DNA from: a virus
Virus record (IMG/VR): IMGVR_UViG_3300025012_000046
Coordinates: 1 to 64,000 of that record
Length of the DNA stretch: 64,000 nucleotides
Direction: 5' to 3' (one strand)
The position numbers and the translations under genes were made by a program. Positions 37,650 through 64,000 of this stretch are shown here, one piece after another (the first letter of the stretch is position 1; each line of letters begins with the position of its first letter). The notes below the pieces were generated by a model. That model did no database searches. It saw only the letters and a list, made by a program, of their open reading frames with translations, and was not told the DNA's origin.

Positions 37650-38975
37650 TTGAAGGAATTCAAAACGCTAGAGCTTATAGCAGCAACCCCAAGTAAAAAT
37701 GACAAAATAAGATTGTTGAAAGAGAATGAGACACCTGATCTTAAGAAGCTGCTCAACTACACGTATGACCGATACAAAACTTATCGTGTAAACAAGGTAG
37801 ACAAGCCTGAAACATACAATATTATCCAGCCTGAGATGGGAAATGAACTTTTCAATCTGCTAGACCTTTTGAGAGAACATAAGACAGGCTCTAATGATGC
37901 CAAGAAGCTTATCAAAAGCACAATGTCTAAGTGTACCGAAGCTGGAGCTAAATGGATTGAAAGAGTATTCAAGCGCAACCTAGACATAGGAATGGATGAG
38001 AAGTCTATAAACAAGGCTTTCCCTGATCTTATCCCTGTGTTTGACGTTCAGCTGGCCTTTCCTATTGACGAGCATTGGGATAGCATCGTATATCCAGTTA
38101 TCCTTGATCCTAAGCTTGATGGTATGCGGGTTATCACCATAGTTAAGGATGATAAAGTTTCCTTCTTATCAAGAGAAGGTATGGAATTTATTAACATGCA
38201 GGCGTTTGCCGAAGAGGTTAAGTCTATACGTCCCGGTACAAACTTCGTGTTAGACGGCGAGATTTACGGTGGCAAACTAAACCCTAACTGCAAGAAAGCT
38301 GTAGAAAAAGTTAAGGCAAATAAGCCCTACAAGTTTACTCAAGCTTCGTCTATGGTAAAGGATAGTAAAACTACGCCGCAAGAGATGCGCAAGTACCTTG
38401 AGTACATCGTGTGGGATATTATAGAGCTTGACTACTTTGAATCACAAGGTAAACGCGGAACAAACGAAGAGTGTGGTGAGCGGAGACTTAAGCTTGCTGC
38501 TCTGTTTGAACGTATCGGTGAGCGTGAGTTCAAGAATGTGAAGTACCTTGAGAATGTTGTAGCTTTCTCTAGGGAAGAAATAATAACGTATCGTGACAAG
38601 TGTATTGCTGAAGGCTTTGAAGGCTGTATGATCAAAGCTGTTGCTGGTAGTTATGATTTCAAGCGAAGTAAATCTGTGCTTAAGTTTAAGGAATTCCATA
38701 CAGGTGACTTTAGGATTAAAGTCGCTATTGAAGGTACAGGTAAGTATGAAGGTATGCTTGGTGCAGTTAAGGTGGAAGCTCCAGGTGTTGACTCTGAGAT
38801 TGGTACTGGCTTCACAGATGACGAGAGGGCTGATCTTTGGGTAGAGTGGTTGGCTGGGAGGCTTACCGGGCAGATTATTGAAGCTCTGTATCAGGAAATT
38901 ACTAGTGAAGGTGCTTTGCGTTTTAGTAGCTTCTTACGTATGCGTCCTGATAAGAGCGAACCTAGTCTTTACTAA
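37650..38975 (+). CDS. ATP-dependent DNA ligase
   Basis: PKLDGMR, LDGEI, WDII, EGCMIK and LKFK motifs; OB domain GTGFTD...LRF...RPDK. Confidence 0.95.
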   Translation: MKEFKTLELIAATPSKNDKIRLLKENETPDLKKLLNYTYDRYKTYRVNKVDKPETYNIIQPEMGNELFNLLDLLREHKTGSNDAKKLIKSTMSKCTEAGAKWIERVFKRNLDIGMDEKSINKAFPDLIPVFDVQLAFPIDEHWDSIVYPVILDPKLDGMRVITIVKDDKVSFLSREGMEFINMQAFAEEVKSIRPGTNFVLDGEIYGGKLNPNCKKAVEKVKANKPYKFTQASSMVKDSKTTPQEMRKYLEYIVWDIIELDYFESQGKRGTNEECGERRLKLAALFERIGEREFKNVKYLENVVAFSREEIITYRDKCIAEGFEGCMIKAVAGSYDFKRSKSVLKFKEFHTGDFRIKVAIEGTGKYEGMLGAVKVEAPGVDSEIGTGFTDDERADLWVEWLAGRLTGQIIEALYQEITSEGALRFSSFLRMRPDKSEPSLY

Positions 38976-42932: not shown

Positions 42933-42962
42933 AGGGAGGGTGTAAAAGCCCTCCCTTCTTTA
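42933..42962 (+). terminator. rho-independent terminator
   Basis: AGGGAGGGT-GTAAAA-GCCCTCCCT stem followed by TCTTTA. Confidence 0.8.
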
Positions 42963-43713: not shown

Positions 43714-44739
43714 ATGCAAAAATTTGTTACTTTCGGTGACGTTCACCTAAAGATCAATCGTGACGCGCCTGTTGAGTGGTCTTTTAAGCGATACAGAGCT
43801 TTATTTAAAGAGATAATTGATCGGTGCCTTAAAGAAGAAGCTACGCTTATAATCACAGGTGACTTATGTGACTCTGCTAGGCCCACTTTATCTGAATTGA
43901 AGTTGTTATTTGAGTTCTTCCATGCTTTAAAAGACAACAAAATAAACACAATACTCATATCAGGAAATCATGAAGAAGTTAACGACAAGCTAACGCTTTA
44001 TAATTACCTGCACCTGGAGAAGTTTGGTAATAAAGATGGGGCTTCTTATATACACTACCAAGACTGGAACAGCGGGTGGGTATTTGAAGACGCTAACGGA
44101 AAGCCTGAATGCTCTATATACCCAGTGTCTCACCATGAAGTACATAATTACGATTACACTAGGGGCATAAAAGGAACAAGGCCTAGCATCCTAGTCTCAC
44201 ACATAAGAGCGGAAATACCTCCGTTCATTTCAGAAGAAGCTCCTATAAATGAGATAGCAAAGAACTTTGATGTTTGTATTTTTGGTGACATTCACGACGA
44301 GCTTGAGTTTGATAACGTATACTACACTAATAATCCTTTAAATTGTTGTTATGAGGTCACACCTAACTGCGGTTACACAATACTTACCGTGGATAAAGGC
44401 AAATTTAACATTCAGCGTGTTAAAACTGATCTACCTAATCTGGTTAAAATCAACACGCAAGCAGAAGCATTCGAAAATGAAGTACTTAAGCTTGACCCCA
44501 AACACTTCTATAAAATCGAAGTAGAGGGCTTAGCCGCTGAATTAAAAGCGATACCTAAGTCTGGTATCAATTTCAAAACTGAAAAACAAATCATAGAAGA
44601 GATTCAGACTGAAGAGGCGTACCACATACCAGTAAGCGACATTAAGCACGAAACTCTTGAAGAAGAGCTTATTTGGTATATGCAGCAACTAGAAATGAAC
44701 GACAAAGACATACAAGGAATGATGGATGAATTTGTTTAA
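43714..44739 (+). CDS. SbcD/Mre11-like recombination nuclease
   Basis: GDVH, GDLCD, GNHE, SH and GDIH motifs; adjacent to the SbcC-like gene. Confidence 0.9.
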   Translation: MQKFVTFGDVHLKINRDAPVEWSFKRYRALFKEIIDRCLKEEATLIITGDLCDSARPTLSELKLLFEFFHALKDNKINTILISGNHEEVNDKLTLYNYLHLEKFGNKDGASYIHYQDWNSGWVFEDANGKPECSIYPVSHHEVHNYDYTRGIKGTRPSILVSHIRAEIPPFISEEAPINEIAKNFDVCIFGDIHDELEFDNVYYTNNPLNCCYEVTPNCGYTILTVDKGKFNIQRVKTDLPNLVKINTQAEAFENEVLKLDPKHFYKIEVEGLAAELKAIPKSGINFKTEKQIIEEIQTEEAYHIPVSDIKHETLEEELIWYMQQLEMNDKDIQGMMDEFV

Positions 44740-44942: not shown

Positions 44943-46847
44943 ATGAATAAAATACTAAAGGTAGTTGCTGACGATACTTTTGCTTTTGAGCACGTTGAGT
45001 TCTCTTTTAGTAACGGTATCTGGGCTATTAACGGAGAAAACGGAAAAGGTAAATCAAGTTTGTTCTTTCTTTTGGCTCAGGGGTTCTTTAATAAGAACCC
45101 CAAGTCAACTGACATTGACGACATTAACAATTGCATCACAGGAAGACCTTCTGTTATAGAGATAGAATGGTTTAACACTGACTCTAGTGTGACGTACAAA
45201 GTGGTAAACTCTAGGAAGGCCGGGAAGATAGAAGTATGGGCAGACGAAACTAACATCTCCGGTAAGACTATCCCACAGAGCCTGAAGATTATAGAAGAGA
45301 AGCTAGGCTGTAACTACGAGAACTTCATAACACAGTGCTTTGTTGATAGCACAACCACACTTGATCTTGTAGAAAGCAGCAATGACGCACCACGTAAAGC
45401 TTTCATCAATAAACTGCTCAAGTTTGAAGAGCTAGACGCCAAGCTGGAAGTATTTAAGCAGCGCAAGAAAAGCCTTGACTCTAGCATCGAAGCTGACAAC
45501 AGGCAACTGGCTACACTAACGTCATCTGTAGGAGAATTGCAAGAAGAGACTGAAGAAGACCTTAAGCTGGAAGAGGAGCTTAAGGCTAAGGTAACGGCTG
45601 CTGAAACCAAATTGTCTAGTCTCAGGGAAGCTAGAGCAGTATTGCACAGTAAATTCCAAGCTACTAAAGATGAAATAGAAGCTTGGACGCAATGCAAAAC
45701 TGCTAGAGATGAGATAAGCAAACTTGAGGCAGAGCTTTCTGAACTAGAGACAGTAATTACTGAAGTAGATCAGCTTGATGACTTGAAAGAAAGCAGAAAG
45801 AATTACTACTCAGAGTTAAACCTACTAAAGATAAACGAGTCTGAGTACGTCAATAAAATTAGGGACTGTAACAACGCTATAAAAAATAAGACGTGCCCCA
45901 CATGTGGGCATGATATTAACATTAAGCCTTTTGTTAAAGACTTGGTTGTTTACCAAACAACGCTTAACGACATACTCAAGTCAAAGGGCGCAGTTGAGGA
46001 GTCTCTTAATAGCATTAACGTTGACCTTAAGCTGTACGAAAAGCAGCAGGAATTATCTAATAAGCTAGATAAGCTTAAGGTACAAAGCAGTTCGCTGACT
46101 GTAGACATTAAAGCAATTACCAAGAAAAAGGAAAAGCTACAAGAAGAGGGCAACACTTTAAACGCTGAGGTGTCAGCAAAGGAAACAGAGTTAAATGAGT
46201 ACCGCAACGCTCATAGAAGAGTATTGGAGAGTAACCAGCAAGCTAAGACAATTAGAGAAGTCAATGCAAGAGTCACAGCAAACAATGAAAAGCTTAACAG
46301 AAACATTGGAGAGCTTCAAACAAACATTGGACAGAATGAGCGACGACTGGAAGTAGTAAAAAAGTGGATAACTATACTTGGACCTAAAGGTTTCCGTGTC
46401 CACAAAATGAACAAGTTTCTTTCACAGCTTAACAAAGCTATGAAGAAGTACTCAGATATTTTGTCTAACGGTAGGATCGTCAGTAAGTTTTACGTTGACG
46501 AAGATGGCAAGATACAGTTTAAGGTGCGAGATATTGACAAGGCCTTGCCGTTCGCATGTTGGTCTTCTGGGGAGAAGGCTAGGGTTAAGCTTAGTTGTTT
46601 ATTTGCCGTACTGGAGTTGTTGGAAGATATTGGTGGCAGTTGTTTTAACATCCTATACTTGGACGAGATAGGCGTAACACTAGACCAAGAAGGTAAAGAT
46701 AATTTGTTCGAAGTGTTGGCTTACCTTAAGAGCAAAGCAAAGTGTATCTACTGTATTAGCCACACACCTTTGGTAAACCCAGTTGTGTTTGACGGCAATT
46801 TCAACATGGAAAAAACTGACGGAATATCTAGCATTTTAGGAGCTTAG
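44943..46847 (+). CDS. SbcC/Rad50-like ABC ATPase
   Basis: GENGKGKSS, CPTC zinc hook, SSGEK signature, YLDE, ISH. Confidence 0.95.
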   Translation: MNKILKVVADDTFAFEHVEFSFSNGIWAINGENGKGKSSLFFLLAQGFFNKNPKSTDIDDINNCITGRPSVIEIEWFNTDSSVTYKVVNSRKAGKIEVWADETNISGKTIPQSLKIIEEKLGCNYENFITQCFVDSTTTLDLVESSNDAPRKAFINKLLKFEELDAKLEVFKQRKKSLDSSIEADNRQLATLTSSVGELQEETEEDLKLEEELKAKVTAAETKLSSLREARAVLHSKFQATKDEIEAWTQCKTARDEISKLEAELSELETVITEVDQLDDLKESRKNYYSELNLLKINESEYVNKIRDCNNAIKNKTCPTCGHDINIKPFVKDLVVYQTTLNDILKSKGAVEESLNSINVDLKLYEKQQELSNKLDKLKVQSSSLTVDIKAITKKKEKLQEEGNTLNAEVSAKETELNEYRNAHRRVLESNQQAKTIREVNARVTANNEKLNRNIGELQTNIGQNERRLEVVKKWITILGPKGFRVHKMNKFLSQLNKAMKKYSDILSNGRIVSKFYVDEDGKIQFKVRDIDKALPFACWSSGEKARVKLSCLFAVLELLEDIGGSCFNILYLDEIGVTLDQEGKDNLFEVLAYLKSKAKCIYCISHTPLVNPVVFDGNFNMEKTDGISSILGA

Positions 46848-47033
46848 TATGTGTTTTATCTTTCATAATTGGTCTAAGTGGTGTGCGCCGGTAGACACAG
46901 GCACACACTTTTATAAGGCACAGTATTCTGAGTGTTTAGATTGTGGTAAAATTAAGGTTAGACGCATTACTTTGTGGAAGGGTGGCAACGCATGTGCAGT
47001 GCCTGCTGAACAAATTAAAAAGGCGTTAGGTAA

Positions 47034-48692
47034 ATGAAGTGGTGGGAAGTTCAACCTGAAGACGTTGCAGAGCTACTTGCGGTTACAAATTCCATTAAGG
47101 CTATTAAGTCTCACAAGGAGAAAAAGGAATTTGTAACCGTAACTGTACCTAACCTTAGACCTGAAGTTAGTTACCTGTTTTCGGTGTTTCTGTATCACTC
47201 TTTGTTTAATTCTAGGTGGGCTGTAATTGATATATCTAACTACTTCACAGTGCGCAAGAAGAATGCAAATGAGTCTACAGCTGAAGACTTTATTAAACTG
47301 CTTAGAGCGTATGATAGAAAAAAGCCTAGACTACGCAAAGACTCAAAGCTGTTCAAGTTTTTGCAGCTGTGTGATAAGCCATACTTTGATTTCTACGCTT
47401 CTCTATTAGAAAAGAAGTTCCATGAGGGGTTGCCACTTACTGAATGCCAAGAGCTTCTAAACCTGGAAGAAGTTTCACTATCTGACATTTATGACCCAGA
47501 GGAAAAGGTAAGGGAGAACCTAGAAGCCCTTACCTTCCCAGTGGCTATTACTAGGGTTGACCACATTGAAGCTGAGTTTGTGATATTTGTCAAGCGCACA
47601 GACGCAGTATATTGCTATAAAATTGTGAATGGGCAACTTAAAACCACATGGGGAGCATTATACAACATCCGGTCCACCAGTACTATATTTGATCAGCCTG
47701 TTTATGCTGTAGCTGGTATTAGGGTTAAGATAGATGACCCTAATTTTGCGGGAAGAAGGAAAGCTACTACAGCTATTAGAAACAAAAAGAGAAACACAAC
47801 GTACTACAAGTTCATTCCGATGGATTTGTTCAAAGACAGGACAGAGATAGAGGCTTACATTAACGGCGAAGAGGTAACTCCATTTATTGAGCGTTATAAA
47901 AATCTACAGGAGTTCCTAGACTATAGCTTTGTATTCGGCAGCTCAGACGATTATGTTGGATTTGCGAATAGCGAACAAGACTTACAAGAAGAGGTCACTA
48001 AGCTTCTAGGCAAAAATAAACAAGGATACTTGGTATTTTACGACGAGAATTCTGTAAGAACCATGACCGTATCTGCTAAGAAGTGTGCCACAGTAGAAAC
48101 CGTTATTGACAGCTTATGGGTAGAGGGTGAAGAAGTAAAAGGCTTTATTGTTTGGCACAACGCAGAAATGCACAAGGTAGCTTTGGACTTGCCTAGTAAA
48201 CACAAAGGATTGCTTAAAAATCCGCAGGCGCTTAAAACTAGAGTTTTAGACTGTATATACTTTAGAGTTAACGATAAGTGCTTTTATTTCCCGGTGCAGT
48301 TCAACTTTAACTCAAAATTTTGGGGGAGTACTAGAGCAGGCGTGTATTTAACTTGTTGCTGTGTTTGTGGTGGAACTGAATATAAACATGATGGAAACGG
48401 TATCTGTACCTCTTGTCTGATGAATATGTATAACATTTTTAGGAGGGTTGGTCCTAACAATTGGCACAATGAAACAAGGAATCAACAAAAGAAAAGGTCA
48501 AAAGTAGGCTGGCACCACAGTATTCTGGATAACGCTAAGGTTAGGTTTCAGGGATACAGGCTTAAGGGTAGGGTAGACGGGGCTATAATGTACGTGCCAG
48601 ATGAAGAGGCTCAAGCTAAGTACGAGCATGAAATATCAAAGCAGGGTTGGAATAAAAACTTAAAGAAGAGCAAAATGAAAGGTAAAATATGA
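47034..48692 (+). CDS. degenerate DNA-ligase-fold protein with a C-terminal Zn finger
   Basis: collinear motif remnants versus ligase 37650..38975, but KxDG is replaced by RVDH; CCVCGG...HDGNGICTSC. Confidence 0.6.
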   Translation: MKWWEVQPEDVAELLAVTNSIKAIKSHKEKKEFVTVTVPNLRPEVSYLFSVFLYHSLFNSRWAVIDISNYFTVRKKNANESTAEDFIKLLRAYDRKKPRLRKDSKLFKFLQLCDKPYFDFYASLLEKKFHEGLPLTECQELLNLEEVSLSDIYDPEEKVRENLEALTFPVAITRVDHIEAEFVIFVKRTDAVYCYKIVNGQLKTTWGALYNIRSTSTIFDQPVYAVAGIRVKIDDPNFAGRRKATTAIRNKKRNTTYYKFIPMDLFKDRTEIEAYINGEEVTPFIERYKNLQEFLDYSFVFGSSDDYVGFANSEQDLQEEVTKLLGKNKQGYLVFYDENSVRTMTVSAKKCATVETVIDSLWVEGEEVKGFIVWHNAEMHKVALDLPSKHKGLLKNPQALKTRVLDCIYFRVNDKCFYFPVQFNFNSKFWGSTRAGVYLTCCCVCGGTEYKHDGNGICTSCLMNMYNIFRRVGPNNWHNETRNQQKKRSKVGWHHSILDNAKVRFQGYRLKGRVDGAIMYVPDEEAQAKYEHEISKQGWNKNLKKSKMKGKI

Positions 48693-48891: not shown

Positions 48892-49452
48892 ATGATTATA
48901 AGCATAGACCTATCTAAACGCTCAACAGGTGTGTGTGCGTTAGACATGAATGGGAACCTGATTGATTTTTTGCTAGTACATAATGAGCACCTACACGAAG
49001 AAGAATTATTCATCTATAACATAAGTCAGATCGTAGATTTCAGCAGAGGCCTCGCTGCTAGGTACGTATTGGAAGGTTTTGTTACTGAAGCACTTGCGCT
49101 GCATGCTCCTAGTAAAGATAAAGATCAGTTGTTCGGGCAGTTCTGGATTCTGCAATACGAGCTAGCTAAGGAGTTTGCTACCGTACCTAGGGGTAAGATC
49201 ACTGTTGCTGAGTGGAGAAGTAGTGTGCTGACTAAAGCAGAGCAGCGAGAGCTAAAGGCTGAAGATAGCAAGAATGGTTTGAAAATTGGGTGTGTACGTA
49301 AGCTGCCGGAAGATGTTAGGGAAAGGTTTGAGCACTACCTGGCTGTTAATAAAGTAAAGAGAATTGCTAGTAAAGAGCCTTTGTATGATTTATCTGACGC
49401 ATATCACATTGGCAAATATAGGTTATCTTATGGAAGAGAAAATAAAATATGA
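48892..49452 (+). CDS. RuvC-like Holliday junction resolvase
   Basis: SIDLSKRSTG, VTE and DLSDAY catalytic pattern. Confidence 0.75.
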   Translation: MIISIDLSKRSTGVCALDMNGNLIDFLLVHNEHLHEEELFIYNISQIVDFSRGLAARYVLEGFVTEALALHAPSKDKDQLFGQFWILQYELAKEFATVPRGKITVAEWRSSVLTKAEQRELKAEDSKNGLKIGCVRKLPEDVRERFEHYLAVNKVKRIASKEPLYDLSDAYHIGKYRLSYGRENKI

Positions 49453-49974: not shown

Positions 49975-50003
49975 TTGACAAACCATTACGAATGTGTTAT
50001 AAT
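49975..50003 (+). promoter_or_regulatory. sigma70-type promoter
   Basis: TTGACA-17-TATAAT, TG extended -10. Confidence 0.85.
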
Positions 50004-50040: not shown

Positions 50041-50430
50041 ATGACAATCGTATCTACCACCAAACCAAACCAAGCATATCACAAATTCGTCGGCTTTTTA
50101 ACTAAAAAATTTCCTATCAATCGGCCTAATAACATAGAAATTCGTCTAGAGGATTACAAATACATTCCTTACAAAGTCAACGGAGAGCTTACAAGAGCTT
50201 ACGCCACAATCAACGCTGTAAGGAATTCAGACAAACTTGTTATTAGGCTGGCTGTAGGAAAGAACGGACACACAATCAAAGAAAAGTTAAATTCAATTGC
50301 GCACGAATACTGTCACTGTATGCAGCACTACAGAGGGGAGGTGTTTAACACAGACTGGGACGCTAGGTTGGAACTAGAAGCAATAGAGTTTGCAAATTCA
50401 GTTGTGAGTAGTTACTATAAAATGATATGA
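50041..50430 (+). CDS. putative Zn metallopeptidase (HExxH)
   Basis: IAHEYCHCMQ...ELEA. Confidence 0.65.
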   Translation: MTIVSTTKPNQAYHKFVGFLTKKFPINRPNNIEIRLEDYKYIPYKVNGELTRAYATINAVRNSDKLVIRLAVGKNGHTIKEKLNSIAHEYCHCMQHYRGEVFNTDWDARLELEAIEFANSVVSSYYKMI

Positions 50431-50443
50431 GGTCTAAACCAAA

Positions 50444-51241
50444 TTGGAAATATTTTCAGAGTTCACCACTAGCTTGGTGATACCAGATGCTCATATTGAG
50501 CCTGGGCAAGATTTAAGTAGATTTGAAAAGCTAGGAAAGCTGATAGTAGAAAGAAAGCCTAACAGGATAATATCTCTTGGTGATTTTGTAACGCTAAGTG
50601 CTTTAAGTAACTGGGATTTATCCAAGGCCGGCGTCATGGAAAACCGAAGGTACTCCTTGGATATGGAGGCAGGTAAGACTGCTATTAACCTAATGTTGTC
50701 ACCACTAAGGGAAGTGCAAGAGAAGCAGAGAAAAGCTAAGGAAAAGATTTATAAACCACGACTAGTATTCATAAAAGGGAACCATTGCAGTCGTTTACCT
50801 AGGTACTTAGAGACTAAACCTGAGCTTAAAGACCACCTAGATATTGACAAAGATTTGCAGTTAGTTGAAAACGGATTCACTGATATAGTTGAATACAGAG
50901 ACTACATTGAATTTGATGGTGTAAACTTCACACACGCACCACAAAACGCAGCTAATCAGCCTGTAAGCGGAAAGTACGCTATACATCGTGCAGCAGAAAT
51001 GACGGCCAAGAGCTTAGTATTTGCCCACAGTCACCGTAGAGAAGCGGTAAATTACTACCGACACGGCTCTCATAACTTGACTCAAATTTATATGGCAGGG
51101 GCATTTTTTGAGCATACTGAAAGTTACGCTTATGGTGGACTTAACGCTTACTGTAGGTCATGTGCAATACTGACACACTTTGCTGAAGGTAGATTCGACG
51201 TAGAGGAAATAAGCTTAGAAAGATTGCACAGGATGTTTTAA
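50444..51241 (+). CDS. metallophosphoesterase
   Basis: PDAH, GDF, GNH, TH and AHSH motifs. Confidence 0.85.
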   Translation: MEIFSEFTTSLVIPDAHIEPGQDLSRFEKLGKLIVERKPNRIISLGDFVTLSALSNWDLSKAGVMENRRYSLDMEAGKTAINLMLSPLREVQEKQRKAKEKIYKPRLVFIKGNHCSRLPRYLETKPELKDHLDIDKDLQLVENGFTDIVEYRDYIEFDGVNFTHAPQNAANQPVSGKYAIHRAAEMTAKSLVFAHSHRREAVNYYRHGSHNLTQIYMAGAFFEHTESYAYGGLNAYCRSCAILTHFAEGRFDVEEISLERLHRMF

Positions 51242-57880: not shown

Positions 57881-58186
57881 TTAACTAATTACCTTAGATA
57901 TAAGCGCTAGAAACTCTCTAGCGTCCTTAAACTCAATCTCTCTTTCAACCGCATCTGCTAGCCAACCATTTAAAACCTTCCACTGCTTATTATCTATCTT
58001 TTTATGTGTAGATATTTTATCTTTAAGAGATTCATACCTCTTATACTTCAATAAACCGCTATCTTCTAAACAAACAGCCCACTTCTCGTTTAACCTGACT
58101 GCTACGCCTTGGTATCTTGTTATTCTAAGTAAATTCCAAAACGAAGATAGTTTATACGTTATTATTTCTAGGTTTACAGTTTTCAT
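57881..58186 (-). CDS. hypothetical protein
   Basis: ATGA overlap with the upstream gene. Confidence 0.55.
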   Translation of the reverse strand: MKTVNLEIITYKLSSFWNLLRITRYQGVAVRLNEKWAVCLEDSGLLKYKRYESLKDKISTHKKIDNKQWKVLNGWLADAVEREIEFKDAREFLALISKVIS

Positions 58187-58555
58187 GGTTGTGGATTAAC
58201 TATATTGTTAACTATTTTGCTAACTTCAGCGTAAGCTTCTACCTTCTTCTTGCCGTCCTCTGCTTCTTTCTTCATAACAGCAACTTGGTCTACTACGTTA
58301 ACTACATTAATAGCCTTTTGGGTCACAGCCTCTACTTTTGAGGTATCAGAACCTATAGCATGTATCCCACTAGTAGCCATAGCACCAGTAAACATTATTG
58401 TGGCTTCGTTTACAGGCACAGTTCCGGTTGCCATCCCGTAAACAGCTACACCAGCGGAAGCTAGTTGCACAACTCCCTTACCAGTTGACATTGGATCGCT
58501 TTTAGCATTTTTTAAAAAGTTTTTTATAAACTGTCCTATTTTTTTTTTTAAACAT
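58183..58555 (-). CDS. small membrane protein (holin-like); likely start 58555 is out of frame across an A11 run
   Basis: AGGAG RBS and ATG 58555; A10 would give MFKKKIGQFIKNFLKNAKSDPMSTGKG...; two hydrophobic segments. Confidence 0.5.
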
Positions 58556-58563
58556 ACATACTC

Positions 58564-59142
58564 CTATGCAGCTATCTTATAGTTGTTAGTGTAAGCGTAA
58601 ACTCTATTTTTATATACATTTATATTGTGGTCTTTAATATCTATCCCGCCGTCATTATCGTGTAAAATTAAGCTAGGAGCCTCTAGATGTTTATACAGCA
58701 GTTTAGGTATCATTGGTACAGGGTCATCGTCACAAATAACCCTATAGTGATTTAAAGAAGGCCCTTTGAAGAACTTAAAATACACTCTAGGACAGCCAAA
58801 GCTCACTACAGGCTTATCAAAAGCTTCACCTAGAAGAACAGCAATTGCACCGCCAAGTGAATGTCCAGTAAAAACTACATTATCACCTAAATCTTTAAAG
58901 TGGTCTTGCAGCACTTTAAACGCGCTGATAAATCCTTTATGCCCTAAAAATCCTTTTGGAGTTTTACTTGGAAATACTCTTAAGTCTCTAGCTACGTTTT
59001 TATTGTTGTCTGTGCCTCTAATAGCAATGTAAGTAGTTCCGTTTCGTGTTGTTTTGGTGTAATAAAGGTCATCTACTTTAACGCAATTCTGGTCAAAATA
59101 GCTTTCGTAGCAAAGATCAATACACGTTATAAGATGTTCCAT
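58564..59142 (-). CDS. class 3 lipase (alpha/beta hydrolase)
   Basis: IAIRGT, HKGF, GHSLGG, FGCPR, DPVP and C-terminal DH. Confidence 0.9.
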   Translation of the reverse strand: MEHLITCIDLCYESYFDQNCVKVDDLYYTKTTRNGTTYIAIRGTDNNKNVARDLRVFPSKTPKGFLGHKGFISAFKVLQDHFKDLGDNVVFTGHSLGGAIAVLLGEAFDKPVVSFGCPRVYFKFFKGPSLNHYRVICDDDPVPMIPKLLYKHLEAPSLILHDNDGGIDIKDHNINVYKNRVYAYTNNYKIAA

Positions 59143-59150
59143 ATTGGCCT

Positions 59151-59432
59151 CTATTTAATGACAGCACTGTTAACGCTGTTGTTTAGTAAACTGCTCCCAA
59201 CTCCAGCTATCCCTGTAGGCACTGCTTCGGTTAGATTGTCGAAGAGCGAACGGTTGCCTCTGTTGTCAACTGATATTTTTACCTTGTAGTCTTGAAACTC
59301 AAACTTAGCGTCGTGCTGAGAGTTAATAACATAAGTTTCACCGGAAGGTAGCGTTATGTTAGACTGACGAGAGCCTAGCGTGGAACATCCAGTTAATGTT
59401 AGGCATATGATTAGTATGGGTAGTGGTTTCAT
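59151..59432 (-). CDS. lipoprotein
   Basis: signal peptide with lipobox LTGC. Confidence 0.75.
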   Translation of the reverse strand: MKPLPILIICLTLTGCSTLGSRQSNITLPSGETYVINSQHDAKFEFQDYKVKISVDNRGNRSLFDNLTEAVPTGIAGVGSSLLNNSVNSAVIK

Positions 59433-59447
59433 ATTTATTTTACTAGT

Positions 59448-59546
59448 TCACGACTCTATATTAGAGTGGCTGTAAATTCCAAGCGTCCAGAGGCAGATAA
59501 TACGCGAATACAGTGTATGGTTCTTCTTGCGGAAAGCGACTTTCAT
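59448..59546 (-). pseudogene. truncated remnant, possibly the N-terminus of a permuted papain-like (NlpC/P60) protein
   Basis: GGAGG RBS; MKVAFRKK...SRIICLWTLGIYSH then a stop after 32 aa. Confidence 0.4.
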
Positions 59547-59588
59547 GCTACCTCCACAGTTATGATCTTAGTTCGTACCGGCAGGGCC

Positions 59589-62500
59589 TTACCCACCATC
59601 TGTGCCTAACGTTACATCCTTCCAAGCAAAGGTAGTACCTCCGTCAGTAGATACACATATCTGTAACTGGTCGGTGCCGCTGGTCTGTTTGTGCGCCCAC
59701 AACGTCAACCGTGTTGCCGCCGCGCATGTGGGGCGGGCAAAGTTAGGAGCGGTGCCCCCTTCTGTGCTGCCGGTCAATTGCATCCCGCTATCGTTGCGGA
59801 GGGTCAGGTTAATCGCCCCAGTGCTGCCTACGCTGCCCATAAGTAAGTCGGTGGGGATAGTGTCACCCGATACTGTTCCGTTGATTTTGGCGTAAAGTTG
59901 CGCTCTCATCTGATAATCAGGACTTGCCCCACCATAGGCATACCATCGGAAGCCACCTAAGATATGAGTATCAGCCATAGCGGAGGGGGAAGCCCAACTG
60001 CCTTGTGATGCTGACATGACTATCCAGGGTCCACGCGGATTAGTGGAGCTGGAACGGCCAAACCAAGGGCCGCGCGTGTTGGTTGTGCCTTCGTCAACTG
60101 TTAAGAAAGGGTGTGCATTGGTGCCAGCGGCGGTGCTTCCTGGTGCTGCCGTGCCTATGGACAGCCTGCCGCCTGATAGGCGCATTTGTTCGGTATTGTC
60201 CTCAGTGAAAGAAAGGTATCCATCTGAGGTATCAGTGGCAGTTATGGAGGTGTCGCCAGCGCCTACAGATGTTGCCGCACCTGACACGACACTTTCAACC
60301 TGATAAACCCCCGTTGTTGAATCCAAGGGGGCAATAACAGCGCCCTTATACGCGCCCAATGTCCAAGCTGCGTTACTTCTGGCACCGTTAATATTGAAGT
60401 AATCACCAGCAGAAGCACTATCAATGGTCATGTCTGAAGATGTATTATTGACCAGCAGCGTTCGTGCTGGCTTTGTCGTATAAGTTGACCCGGTGCTAAT
60501 AATCTGTGGCACTGTGTGCGCCGTCCCTCCCGTAAAAATAACCACCTTTCCAAAGTCACTTACACTAGGATTCTGACCATCGCCATAGGATACTATGGCG
60601 CTGTATTGCATCCCCCCAGCGCCGGTAAGCTGTGACCCATCCCCAATAAACGCCGTTGCTTTGACATTGCCGCCAACTTCCAACGCTTCCGTAGGGTCAG
60701 AGGTAAATTGACTTGGATTGCCAGAACGAGCTAAATTGATACCTACATAGCCATCCTTAGTTATTCGTAGCCCTTCGGTTTCGATTGTAGAATCTGTAGG
60801 AATGGTGTAAAGAGAAGTCCGAAATGGATTGGACGTTGCGGACCATGCACCTTGAGATACAGAGTCTTGAGTGATTTTACCTACTGTAAATTTAGAATTA
60901 TCAGCATTGGTTCCTGAAGCAGTAGCCCCCTTTACCTGGAATACTCCCAACCTCATACCATCGGTAATCGCAGTGAAACTTTCTTTTGTCCCACCTGCAC
61001 GTTGAAAAACATGTCTTGCGGCTCCGGCTGCGGTATCCTGAAATGAAGCTATGGCGAAGCCGGTAGAACCATTCGATGAGCCGTGTACATCATAAATAGC
61101 TTCGGTAGTGGACATATTACCAAAGGCCACCCTCCCATTACTTGCATTCACCTTCAAAGTGGAGTGGGTAAAGCCACCAGCCCCATCGGTTATCTGCACC
61201 GCTCCGGTCTGCCCACTGGACACCGCCCCGCCTGCCCCTGCCTGCCACGAACCGTCATCGCGTAAAAACTTGGTGCCAGTGCGTGTTCCAGACCCTAACC
61301 ATGCAGGATTCGCGTAGGTCACATTTGCAGGGTTAGACATAAGAACCATTGAGGTCGAGCTGTTGATTATATTGGTTCCTGATATTGTTCTAAACTCGTT
61401 GAATCCAACTGTGCCAGTACAACCAGTCCCTATATTGATTCCATCGGTAAGATTAAACAGTATGTTACCTGTGATGGATGCAGAAAGAGTGTCAGTTATT
61501 TTAATGCCTGTTGCCGCCGTACTCGCTGCACCCATGATTTCGTTGCCGGTAATAACAACATCATAAGCGTTATCTATATCAATTCCGTCAACGCCAGCGT
61601 TCCATGCTCCTAATTCGTTGCCAGTTATCCAGATTCTACCCATACCATCACCAGCGGCATCTGATCTGATCTTGATAACAGCCCCAGACGTTCCTATGTA
61701 ATTTTCAAAGGAACAGCCAGTAACCTGTAGAATGGTCAGAGCACCAACCGGGCCTTTGGTGGTTACGTTGTATTCAATAGCGGCAGTAAGGCCGTTGAAC
61801 AGCTTGGAGTTTTCAATACTCAATCCACTGCCAGAAACAACATAGATAAGTTTATCCATGTTGTTGCCGCTGAACTGGCACTGTGTTATTCGATGATCGC
61901 CGCCGTCAGTGTCAGGATGGTCTATGTATAAACCGATAGCGCCAGTAGAGTTTGAGTGTATGCGACATAGGTGGAGTTTGGCAAAGTTTGCCTCATAAAG
62001 AGCTATACCTATTTTATTATCAAGTACGTCCACTCGCACAATATCGGTATAACGAATATAAAGAGATGGATCGCCGGAATACGTCTTAGGCCCAACCGCA
62101 ATTCCTGTCTGCCCTGTTCCTGGTGTACCTAATGGTGAAATAGTGAAGTCTTGTAAGGTACAGTTGAAAGATTTTATCCAAAGTATCTCACCTGCAAAAT
62201 CACCTTTTATAATAGTCTTGTTGCGCCCCTGCCCTTCGATCTTGGTATTAACATCTAGGGTTTCATTGAGAACATACGTCTTCGGACCTAATACTACTTT
62301 CTTGGTAGTCCCGGCTGCAACAGATGCCTCCTTGAGTGCTGCGTAATCCACATACTGAGTGTTTACGTTAGTAATTCCGGCATTGGGCCATTTGGCTTGT
62401 GCCGTCCCTAATGTATAACCAGCAGATGCGAGGGTATGTGCTGAACCATCGCCTATGGGGTCATAGACATCTGCATAGACAATCAGCCCTACAGCGTTGA

Positions 62501-62858
62501 GGAGTTTGTACCAAAGGGGTTTTAGTAGCCCCGCACTGGTGGCTGTTGCATCTGGTATCCGGTCATCCCCACTAGATGTGTAGTGCTGTAGCGCGTGGGC
62601 TTTGGTAGCATACCCCTCCGCCACCCCATCATTCGTAGCCCTGCCCCCACCTGCGGAGGTATACGCCCCAAACCCCGCCTGCGTCTGGTAGGTGGCGGCG
62701 GCTTCCGTTTTGGGTAAGCGGTCAACGGTCGTGTAGTTTTTAAGAGCAGTATTGTCCTTAACCGGGACCCACGCTCCATCCTTACGCACATGGAGAGTAG
62801 GCGCAGCTATTGCTGCGGTACATATTAATGCTAGTGCGAGTGTGAGTAACTTTTTCAT
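59589..62858 (-). CDS. tail fibre / tailspike with a right-handed beta-helix (pectin-lyase-like) domain
   Basis: IEGQGRNKTII start of the beta-helix; repeated I-T-G-N rungs; GxVGI fibre motifs; signal-peptide-like N-terminus; higher GC. Confidence 0.75.
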   Translation of the reverse strand: MKKLLTLALALICTAAIAAPTLHVRKDGAWVPVKDNTALKNYTTVDRLPKTEAAATYQTQAGFGAYTSAGGGRATNDGVAEGYATKAHALQHYTSSGDDRIPDATATSAGLLKPLWYKLLNAVGLIVYADVYDPIGDGSAHTLASAGYTLGTAQAKWPNAGITNVNTQYVDYAALKEASVAAGTTKKVVLGPKTYVLNETLDVNTKIEGQGRNKTIIKGDFAGEILWIKSFNCTLQDFTISPLGTPGTGQTGIAVGPKTYSGDPSLYIRYTDIVRVDVLDNKIGIALYEANFAKLHLCRIHSNSTGAIGLYIDHPDTDGGDHRITQCQFSGNNMDKLIYVVSGSGLSIENSKLFNGLTAAIEYNVTTKGPVGALTILQVTGCSFENYIGTSGAVIKIRSDAAGDGMGRIWITGNELGAWNAGVDGIDIDNAYDVVITGNEIMGAASTAATGIKITDTLSASITGNILFNLTDGINIGTGCTGTVGFNEFRTISGTNIINSSTSMVLMSNPANVTYANPAWLGSGTRTGTKFLRDDGSWQAGAGGAVSSGQTGAVQITDGAGGFTHSTLKVNASNGRVAFGNMSTTEAIYDVHGSSNGSTGFAIASFQDTAAGAARHVFQRAGGTKESFTAITDGMRLGVFQVKGATASGTNADNSKFTVGKITQDSVSQGAWSATSNPFRTSLYTIPTDSTIETEGLRITKDGYVGINLARSGNPSQFTSDPTEALEVGGNVKATAFIGDGSQLTGAGGMQYSAIVSYGDGQNPSVSDFGKVVIFTGGTAHTVPQIISTGSTYTTKPARTLLVNNTSSDMTIDSASAGDYFNINGARSNAAWTLGAYKGAVIAPLDSTTGVYQVESVVSGAATSVGAGDTSITATDTSDGYLSFTEDNTEQMRLSGGRLSIGTAAPGSTAAGTNAHPFLTVDEGTTNTRGPWFGRSSSTNPRGPWIVMSASQGSWASPSAMADTHILGGFRWYAYGGASPDYQMRAQLYAKINGTVSGDTIPTDLLMGSVGSTGAINLTLRNDSGMQLTGSTEGGTAPNFARPTCAAATRLTLWAHKQTSGTDQLQICVSTDGGTTFAWKDVTLGTDGG

Positions 62859-62872
62859 TTATATCCTCCGGC

Positions 62873-64000
62873 TTATTCTATTACGAAAGGCTGCCCTGCT
62901 GTCCAACTCCCTGTCTGTGTTCCACCTTCGGTCTTATTCTCTATTACACGTACTTTAGGTGTATATGTTCCAGTGCTTAGTTTAGAGATTGATACGTTAT
63001 ACCCAGCACCTTGGAACGCTGATACATCTGAAGTCTCAGTTAGCGATACTGTTCTGCTATCAGCTATGGCAGCATCTTCATCAGCGTCAGTACCACTTAA
63101 TTGCCAGATGATCTGGATAGTGTTTATTGTGTCACCGGTGCCTATGCCTGATACTGTGCCTGTAATTGTGAATGTGGTGTTACTTAGTGGTTGTACCGCG
63201 CCGATATAAGTGTTGGTAAGCGAAGGATCGCCTGATGCCATAAAAGACGCTGTTGGTTTTAGCGCCGTCCTGACGTTGGATAGAACAGCCGTCAATGTGT
63301 ACTCCGACGGAGTGACCCTTTGTGCGGGGCTACTATGATCCCATCCATTTATGGACACGATCCGTTGAGCACACACAGCGGTTGTGGCCGCATTACCACA
63401 GGCAGATAAAACTGTAATGCCCCTGTTGGCGAACAGTGGGTCGCCGTAGCGGTCATGTGTGGCGTAGTCAGCACCAAAAGTTTGACCACTGATCCAAGCT
63501 ACCCCGCCTCCTTCCGCGCCCATGTAGCTGTTTTGACTTGCTGCGTGAGTATGCCCTACCGGATAATCCAGATTCCCTGCGGTAGTGTTAAGATATGACG
63601 CGTTATAGTCTAGTACCAGTTGGGTCTGTGCTTGATTGGCCTGTCGGTGAATACCGGCAGTTGCGGGAGACTCACCCGAATCCCATCCCATAAAGTTGTT
63701 TTTTACTGTTTTGAGCATCGTTACTGGCGCTAAAGTTTCGCCGGTCTGAATTAAACTGGACTTTGCACCAACGACAGTATTGTTGATAACGTCTATATCC
63801 GTGTCCGCAGCCTGAGTACCGCCGACCAACGCCCCTATACCTGCCAGCCCAATGTTGTTTTTGACCGTTGCATAGCCATTAATGACTCCTTCACCATAAT
63901 CACCGGCAGGCGTATTTATACCAGTGAAAATATTTCCATCAGCAACTAACCCGTTTCCAGCTCCGTCAATTATTGCGCTTCTATCTGCTGCAATGTAATG
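62873..64000 (-). CDS. beta-helix virion/tail protein, partial (runs off the window)
   Basis: frame is open from 64000 (HYIAADRSAII...) to the stop at 62873; VKNNI/VINNT rungs; GDPLF. Confidence 0.65.
   Translation of the reverse strand, partial: HYIAADRSAIIDGAGNGLVADGNIFTGINTPAGDYGEGVINGYATVKNNIGLAGIGALVGGTQAADTDIDVINNTVVGAKSSLIQTGETLAPVTMLKTVKNNFMGWDSGESPATAGIHRQANQAQTQLVLDYNASYLNTTAGNLDYPVGHTHAASQNSYMGAEGGGVAWISGQTFGADYATHDRYGDPLFANRGITVLSACGNAATTAVCAQRIVSINGWDHSSPAQRVTPSEYTLTAVLSNVRTALKPTASFMASGDPSLTNTYIGAVQPLSNTTFTITGTVSGIGTGDTINTIQIIWQLSGTDADEDAAIADSRTVSLTETSDVSAFQGAGYNVSISKLSTGTYTPKVRVIENKTEGGTQTGSWTAGQPFVIE

Follow-up and report, generated by a model that had tools for sequence, protein, structure and literature searches.

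A ligase-like protein of 552 amino acids, here named X (P0001), is encoded in the window, the name used below for the initial 64 kb of a 99.5-kb viral contig in IMG/VR (record IMGVR_UViG_3300025012_000046, completeness estimated at 88%); the phage's own ligase, P0002, is encoded there as well. X shares fold and ancestry with the ATP-dependent DNA ligases, and the residues that it carries at the positions of the ligase motifs indicate that it is very probably a catalytically dead ligase pseudoenzyme, as are the other members of its family. Because it has kept the shape of a ligase, lost the catalytic residues and gained a zinc finger, X probably binds broken DNA rather than sealing it. An initial annotation of the window had described an apparently inactive ligase paralogue with an added finger, and its open reading frame (ORF) is present as described, on the + strand.

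The relationship to ligases is not visible in comparisons of single sequences. X by itself matched no Pfam family, PHROG or PDB chain (the last by phmmer), and BLASTP of X against P0002 gave no in-register alignment, the best match (E 0.033) being out of register, so that the hand alignment of the two proteins on which the initial annotation drew was not by itself above chance. A profile-profile comparison (hhalign) of an alignment of 42 X-family members (A2; 19–46% identity to X) with a 42-sequence alignment of P0002 relatives (A3), used as the ligase profile, gave a probability of 97.5% and an E value of 5.6e-12 over 354 colinear columns, which cover the N-terminal helical, adenylation and OB domains. 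Under other settings the probability was 96.9–98.7%, and an unrelated SbcC profile, used as a control, scored 0.8%. For most segments hhalign reproduces the hand-drawn register, namely (X given first, ligase second) for QLC...FYASLLEKKFHEGL with SKC...WIERVFKRNLDIGM in the N-domain, ALTFPVAITRVDH with SIVYPVILDPKLD, YAVAGIR with FVLDGEI, ERYKNL with ERRLKL, and ANSEQDL with AFSREEI. The pairing of FIPMDLF with YIVWDII is present in the Viterbi alignment but is shifted by 5 residues on maximum-accuracy (MAC) realignment; those involving VIFVKRTDAV and QGYLVF lie near the proposed register but are displaced by 1–2 residues; and the equation of AKK in X with motif V (KFK) is not recovered, hhalign instead putting a deletion over motif V.

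Structural comparisons lead to the same relationship. The model used was generated by AlphaFold2 with A2 (predicted local distance difference test score, pLDDT, 86.7; predicted template modelling score, pTM, 0.69), a shallow model from a 2-sequence alignment (pLDDT 36) having been useless. In a Foldseek search of PDB its top 50 matches are without exception ATP-dependent DNA ligases, T4 ligase ranking first (E 4.6e-10), and in BFVD nearly all matches are viral DNA ligases, including every named one in the top 21, at 10–14% identity, with a few capping-enzyme-type proteins lower in the list. Residues 352–428 match OB folds in a domain-by-domain alignment that is independent of Foldseek, and the nearest ESM Atlas clusters by language-model features are all phage ATP-dependent ligases. 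The model shows the architecture that had been expected, in which a DNA-binding domain (DBD) is followed by a nucleotidyltransferase (NTase) domain and an OB domain, and a fold unrelated to the latter two did not appear. Four independent lines of evidence agree on this assignment.

The class of ligases that X most resembles is that of T4 ligase and Prochlorococcus Pmar-Lig (PDB 6dt1, 5wfy and 6ras), enzymes with a compact seven-helix DBD, an NTase domain and an OB domain, and X likewise has three such domains. However, it is ~11–12% identical to these ligases, has neither the KxDG lysine nor the acids of motifs III and IV, has motif V deleted, and appears to carry a zinc finger and a domain of ~90 amino acids in place of the motif VI region. 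Pmar-Lig and the T4 and Rhizobium phage ligases fall into the class whose seven-helix DNA-binding domain is pared down, as set out in a 2020 review of ligase diversity (PMC7470946). P0002 (PF01068, E 6e-18; PF14743, E 1.4e-16; phrog_114, E 2e-95; and part of PF04675) has the same three enzymes as its closest solved relatives, but it keeps all of the catalytic motifs, has no zinc finger, and is ~11% identical to X. It is plausible that X derives from a ligase of the T4/Pmar-Lig type and that the two proteins have a common origin within that class, and to this extent the earlier designation of X as a paralogue of P0002 can stand; a duplication within the phage is not demonstrable at this level of identity, which excludes a recent one. 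The m3G-cap-binding domain of snurportin-1 (PDB 1xk5) also functions without catalysis, but it is eukaryotic, derives from a capping enzyme, binds an RNA cap, and is accompanied by neither a DBD nor a zinc finger. No match of X to the NAD-dependent ligase LigA was seen beyond the NTase domain; LigA is an active enzyme that lacks an N-terminal helical DBD and has Ia, HhH and BRCT domains around its NTase, OB and zinc regions.

The lysine of motif I, K155 in P0002, aligns with V175 (MAC) or D176 (Viterbi) of X. The motif I column is occupied by Val, Ile, Leu or Met in the X family and by Lys in 0 of the 42 members; in the column beside it Lys occurs in 3 of 42, none within a KxDG context. The Asp and Glu of motif III are replaced by A227 (Val, Ala or Leu in the family) and I229 (Tyr, Phe or Leu), the motif III Gly (G228) is kept in 41 of the 42 members, and a DGE motif is found in none. 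The Glu and Lys of motif IV correspond to G331 (Ser, Gly or Thr) and Y336 (Thr, Ser or Cys), while motif V (KxK) falls inside an alignment deletion across the family, and no column anywhere in the 42-member alignment is at least 80% Lys. The local hhalign alignment stops short of motif VI, where a forced global alignment is unreliable, and in X it is the zinc finger that comes after the OB strands. The loss of the adenylated Lys and of the motif III and IV acids, which had been noticed in X itself, therefore holds in all 42 members; with motifs I, III, IV and V gone from every one, X should be unable to form lysyl-AMP or to bind nucleotide in the canonical manner. D264 (38/42) and R287 (40/42) of X pair with D256 and R278, which are near-invariant in true ligases, and are likely to be structural because true ligases conserve these counterparts. 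A scaffold that is kept while the chemistry is lost is the signature of a pseudoenzyme.

The family to which X belongs is large. When 1.84 billion cluster representatives were searched exhaustively with HMMER, ~50 relatives came up at E ≤ 1e-10, each standing for a cluster at 50% identity, and most of these are 500–600 residues long and match X over their full or near-full length; the exhaustive search was used since a word-indexed homologue search returned just one relative, even with the family profile. In none of the 42 members did a ligase Pfam family reach E ≤ 0.1, and none scored above the gathering threshold of PF01068, PF14743 or PF04679; an hmmsearch of PDB with the 42-sequence profile gave no ligase match, just weak zinc-ribbon ones; and tblastn with X, P0006 and P0036 found no match to the family in 50,697 GenBank phage records, T5-like phages included. 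Among close X orthologues of one sister lineage the ratio of nonsynonymous to synonymous substitution rates (dN/dS) is 0.11–0.13, at dS 0.19–0.44. The gene is under clear purifying selection, and because dN/dS is ~0.12, X is to be regarded as a selected pseudoenzyme and not as a decaying gene. The X family, very probably one of ligase-derived pseudoenzymes, is large and hidden, its members being labelled hypothetical by annotation pipelines.

The CxxC...H...CxxC finger reported for X is also a property of the family, with the pattern (E/D)(K/R)-C442-x2-C445-G ... H452 ... G456-x-C458-x2-C461 ... N464. C442 and C458 are present in 42/42 members, C445 in 41/42, and C461 and H452 each in 30/42, C461 being otherwise Thr or Ser, so that the conserved ligand set is of the Cys3-Cys/His kind. 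The basic tail that had been listed with it is lineage-specific and cannot be considered a feature of the family. A PDB profile search gave a weak echo (E ~0.2) of the ribosomal S14/L32 zinc modules, and 7/42 members have weak matches to DZR_2; the module is probably of the treble-clef or zinc-ribbon type, and its Cys and His residues would be expected to bind zinc. A spacing of 12 residues between Cys pairs is probably too short for a beta-beta-alpha-metal site of the HNH type, in which a catalytic His and an Asn or His lie between the two pairs, and an HNH nuclease reading of the module was set aside as unlikely on this spacing together with the lack of any HNH-type Pfam match in the 42 members. 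The domain that follows the finger has near-invariant residues at G473, W477, R488, W493, G516 and F520 and is confidently modelled by AlphaFold2 (pLDDT ~94–96), and it found no fold match in a whole-model fold search, in the ESM Atlas or in a PDB profile search.

The locations of the features discussed here are collected in Table 1. In the window X belongs to a block consisting of SbcD, a small ORF, SbcC, a 62-residue ORF, X, a 68-residue ORF and the gene for a 186-residue protein, in which start and stop codons abut or overlap throughout, from SbcD to the last gene. The block is bracketed by a strong terminator-like hairpin and a consensus promoter-like site, suggesting that the host polymerase transcribes it as a separate unit. 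SbcD, SbcC and X follow one another in the same order in three related lineages (L002, L007 and L021), whose X proteins are ~25–30% identical to P0001 and in which SbcD occupies the same position in the block; the start of X overlaps the stop of SbcC in L002, the two genes are separated by 8 nt in L021, and an ORF of 143 residues lies between them in L007. X is located just downstream of SbcC in all 8 of the 8 IMG/VR loci retrieved by an SbcC profile. The position of X after SbcC, which the initial annotation had pointed out, is accordingly kept in four lineages. Relatives do not share the small ORFs that flank X, the slot of the 62-residue ORF being either empty or filled by the unrelated 143-residue ORF. 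Like the window, 4/4 related records searched encode a canonical PF01068 ligase, one of them being a complete 113-kb genome with terminal repeats, and the wider neighbourhood of X carries PolA and FEN as well as the ligase. By PolA, the nearest cultured relatives are the T5-like Demerecviridae (~28% identity). The nearest annotated counterpart of the replication and recombination region of the window is the block of the T5-like Vibrio phage VCPH (L022, AP014889.1 70319-86136), which has the order PolA-helicase-D11-SbcD-SbcC-D14-FEN and no X homologue.

Table 1. Features of the window that bear on X and its gene block
Feature	Position in window	Strand	Basis or remark
Canonical ATP-dependent DNA ligase P0002, motifs intact	37650..38975	+	PF01068, PF14743, phrog_114
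Terminator-like hairpin upstream of block	42933..42956	+	9 base pairs, 6 of them G-C, and a T-rich tail
SbcD/Mre11-like metallophosphoesterase, first conserved gene of block	43714..44739	+	PF00149, E 4.8e-12
SbcC/Rad50-like ATPase, directly upstream of X	44943..46847	+	phrog_77, E 8.5e-61
Cys-rich ORF of 62 residues between SbcC and X	46849..47037	+	Stop overlaps X start (ATGA)
Ligase-like pseudoenzyme X (very probable), 552 residues	47034..48692	+	ORF call
X: N-terminal helical DNA-binding-domain homologue, compact T4-ligase type, residues ~8-153	47055..47492	+	
X: nucleotidyltransferase (adenylation) domain homologue, very probably catalytically dead, residues ~157-351	47502..48086	+	
X: OB-fold domain homologue, residues ~352-428	48087..48317	+	
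X: zinc finger, residues 440-464	48351..48425	+	Conserved Cys/His columns
X: C-terminal alpha/beta domain, residues 465-537	48426..48644	+	Conservation and confident model
X: charged tail, lineage-specific	48645..48689	+	Basic here, acidic in L002 lineage; pLDDT <50
Protein of 186 residues downstream of X, D-E-D-D pattern	48892..49452	+	Invariant residues; relatives in L021 and L007
Sigma-70-type promoter-like site, perfect, downstream of block	49975..50003	+	12/12 match with TG extension

These structures and contexts suggest a role for X in which the three domains that a ligase wraps round a DNA nick, the seven-helix DBD, the adenylation domain and the OB domain, would be retained as a clamp, and the zinc finger with the small aromatic and Arg-rich domain would stand where the OB domain of a ligase ends in motif VI. 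X would then recognise discontinuities in DNA (nicks, gaps and ends) without sealing them, sealing being left to the separate canonical ligase, and it would act with the co-transcribed phage SbcD-SbcC (Mre11-Rad50) nuclease during recombination-dependent replication or the processing of concatemers. It might recruit SbcCD to breaks, or it might itself be the bound protein block that licenses an endonucleolytic cut by SbcCD. Licensing of endonucleolytic cleavage by a protein block has been described for E. coli SbcCD (PMC6265447). In functional terms X would be analogous to other additional end- or break-binding partners of Mre11-Rad50, such as Nbs1/Xrs2, CtIP/Sae2, the Ku end block and archaeal HerA-NurA, but it has no sequence or fold relationship with any of them, and its own partnership with SbcCD is a proposal. 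HerA-NurA was itself first tied to rad50/mre11 by gene clustering, as cited in PMC3632103 (ref. 49) and PMC3326311. The complete reading, that X is a non-catalytic nick- or end-binding pseudoenzyme that partners the phage SbcCD, is the likeliest of those considered and appears to us about evenly balanced between true and false. A stronger version, in which X would be the earliest DNA-ligase pseudoenzyme to be described and also a dedicated third component of a viral SbcCD machine that senses nicks or ends and positions or licenses the nuclease, is a tentative possibility that we would not expect to hold. Regulation of late transcription, which the initial annotation had also entertained, was rejected as a role for X, as nothing in the analysis supports it.

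Several observations weigh against a partnership of X with SbcCD. The evidence that links the two consists of gene order, and the contexts seen all belong to a single broad clade of uncultured phages with a distant likeness to T5, the most distant subgroup P0030–P0050 lying outside this sample, so that the linkage looks stronger than it is wherever the gene order was inherited in common. Different genes occur between SbcC and X, as they do between X and the 186-residue gene, and strict translational coupling is therefore not universal. It should also be recognised that the C-terminal third of X, whose fold is unmatched, could carry the real function. The same fold and the same dead active site would equally fit a non-catalytic DNA-binding or scaffold protein of replication or Okazaki-fragment processing, with no specific tie to SbcCD, which would keep nicks or flaps in place for the real ligase, PolA or FEN, or would guard breaks in general from host nucleases, the synteny being simply inherited. 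The occurrence of PolA, FEN and ligase in the wider neighbourhood, and the restriction of the contexts to one phage clade, are consistent with such a role, which we nevertheless regard as rather unlikely, because the adjacency of X to SbcC holds in four lineages despite HNH and small-ORF insertions nearby, whereas the positions of the real ligase and of FEN relative to X vary more.

It is improbable that X serves instead to block the sealing or processing of particular nicks, as a dead-ligase competitor of the host or phage ligase or of SbcCD. A competitive nick-binder would be expected to have just such a ligase clamp devoid of chemistry, and phages of the T5 type, to which the nearest cultured relatives by PolA belong, have site-specific nicks in their virion DNA. 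However, T5-like VCPH lacks X, the 50,697 GenBank phage records contain no match to it, and nothing points to nicked DNA in the phage of the window. We would place equally little weight on the suggestion that X has remained an enzyme and acquired a new chemistry, located in the zinc-finger and C-terminal module or in a remodelled pocket, so as to act perhaps as a nuclease or to sense nucleotides. The conserved residues D264, D337, E440, H452, R287 and R488 could serve such a function, as near-invariant positions include several that are acidic, His or Arg and the C-terminal domain has no assigned fold, but D264 and R287 are likely to be structural, given their true-ligase counterparts, no nuclease or other enzyme family was matched by the 42 members, and the Cys pairs are probably too close for a site of the HNH type. 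That the likeness to ligases is an artefact, or that the X gene is a decaying pseudogene, is barely credible, since, although BLAST between the two proteins and sequence searches of Pfam, PHROGs and PDB were uniformly negative, the four independent lines agree on a ligase fold and the family comprises ~50 diverged full-length representatives with dN/dS ~0.12.

The 186-residue protein encoded downstream of X has relatives in two of the related lineages, at L021:9899-10441 (30% identity, E 1e-25) and L007:9759-10325, with which it shares invariant D6, E66, D166 and D169. Pfam, PHROGs and a PDB profile search returned nothing for it, and it does not resemble the T5-type D14. The invariant acidic pattern makes it a possible RuvC/RNase-H-like nuclease candidate; the initial annotation had called it a RuvC-like resolvase, an assignment with which the pattern agrees but which no family search confirmed. 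In L002 an HNH homing-type endonuclease is inserted directly after X (L002:9424-10092), and a metallophosphoesterase further downstream (L002:10444-11448) has an N-terminal homing-endonuclease-associated repeat (PF18780). After the block in the window there is a second metallophosphoesterase (phrog_221; 50444-51241, +), which recurs in L002, and beside it an IrrE/Peptidase_M78-like protein of 129 residues (50041-50430, +). From ~58000 to 64000 the GC content of the window rises from ~0.40 to ~0.49 and the GC and AT skews switch sign; this marks off a region of distinct composition, in which the genes probably lie on the other strand.

Few enzymes of nucleic acid metabolism have been studied as closely as the DNA ligases. 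In a search of the full-text literature no dead homologue of a DNA ligase, from phages or elsewhere, was described, in agreement with the earlier remark that no described equivalent of X was known, and a full-length ligase homologue that is conserved and under selection though catalytically dead, of the kind predicted here, appears not to have been described previously. A keyword search of the 2020 ligase-diversity review (PMC7470946) likewise returned no such form in the passages that it matched. The case of X indicates that a combination of profile and fold methods can uncover large hidden families among the proteins that annotation pipelines call hypothetical. Should X prove to bind nicks or ends and leave them unsealed, it would act as a natural sensor of nicks or breaks and possibly be a useful reagent. 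If the partnership with SbcCD is also correct, X would show how phage Mre11-Rad50 nucleases, which are poorly understood in this respect outside T4, are targeted or controlled, and a ligase clamp would do in a phage what Nbs1, CtIP or Ku-type blocks do in eukaryotes.

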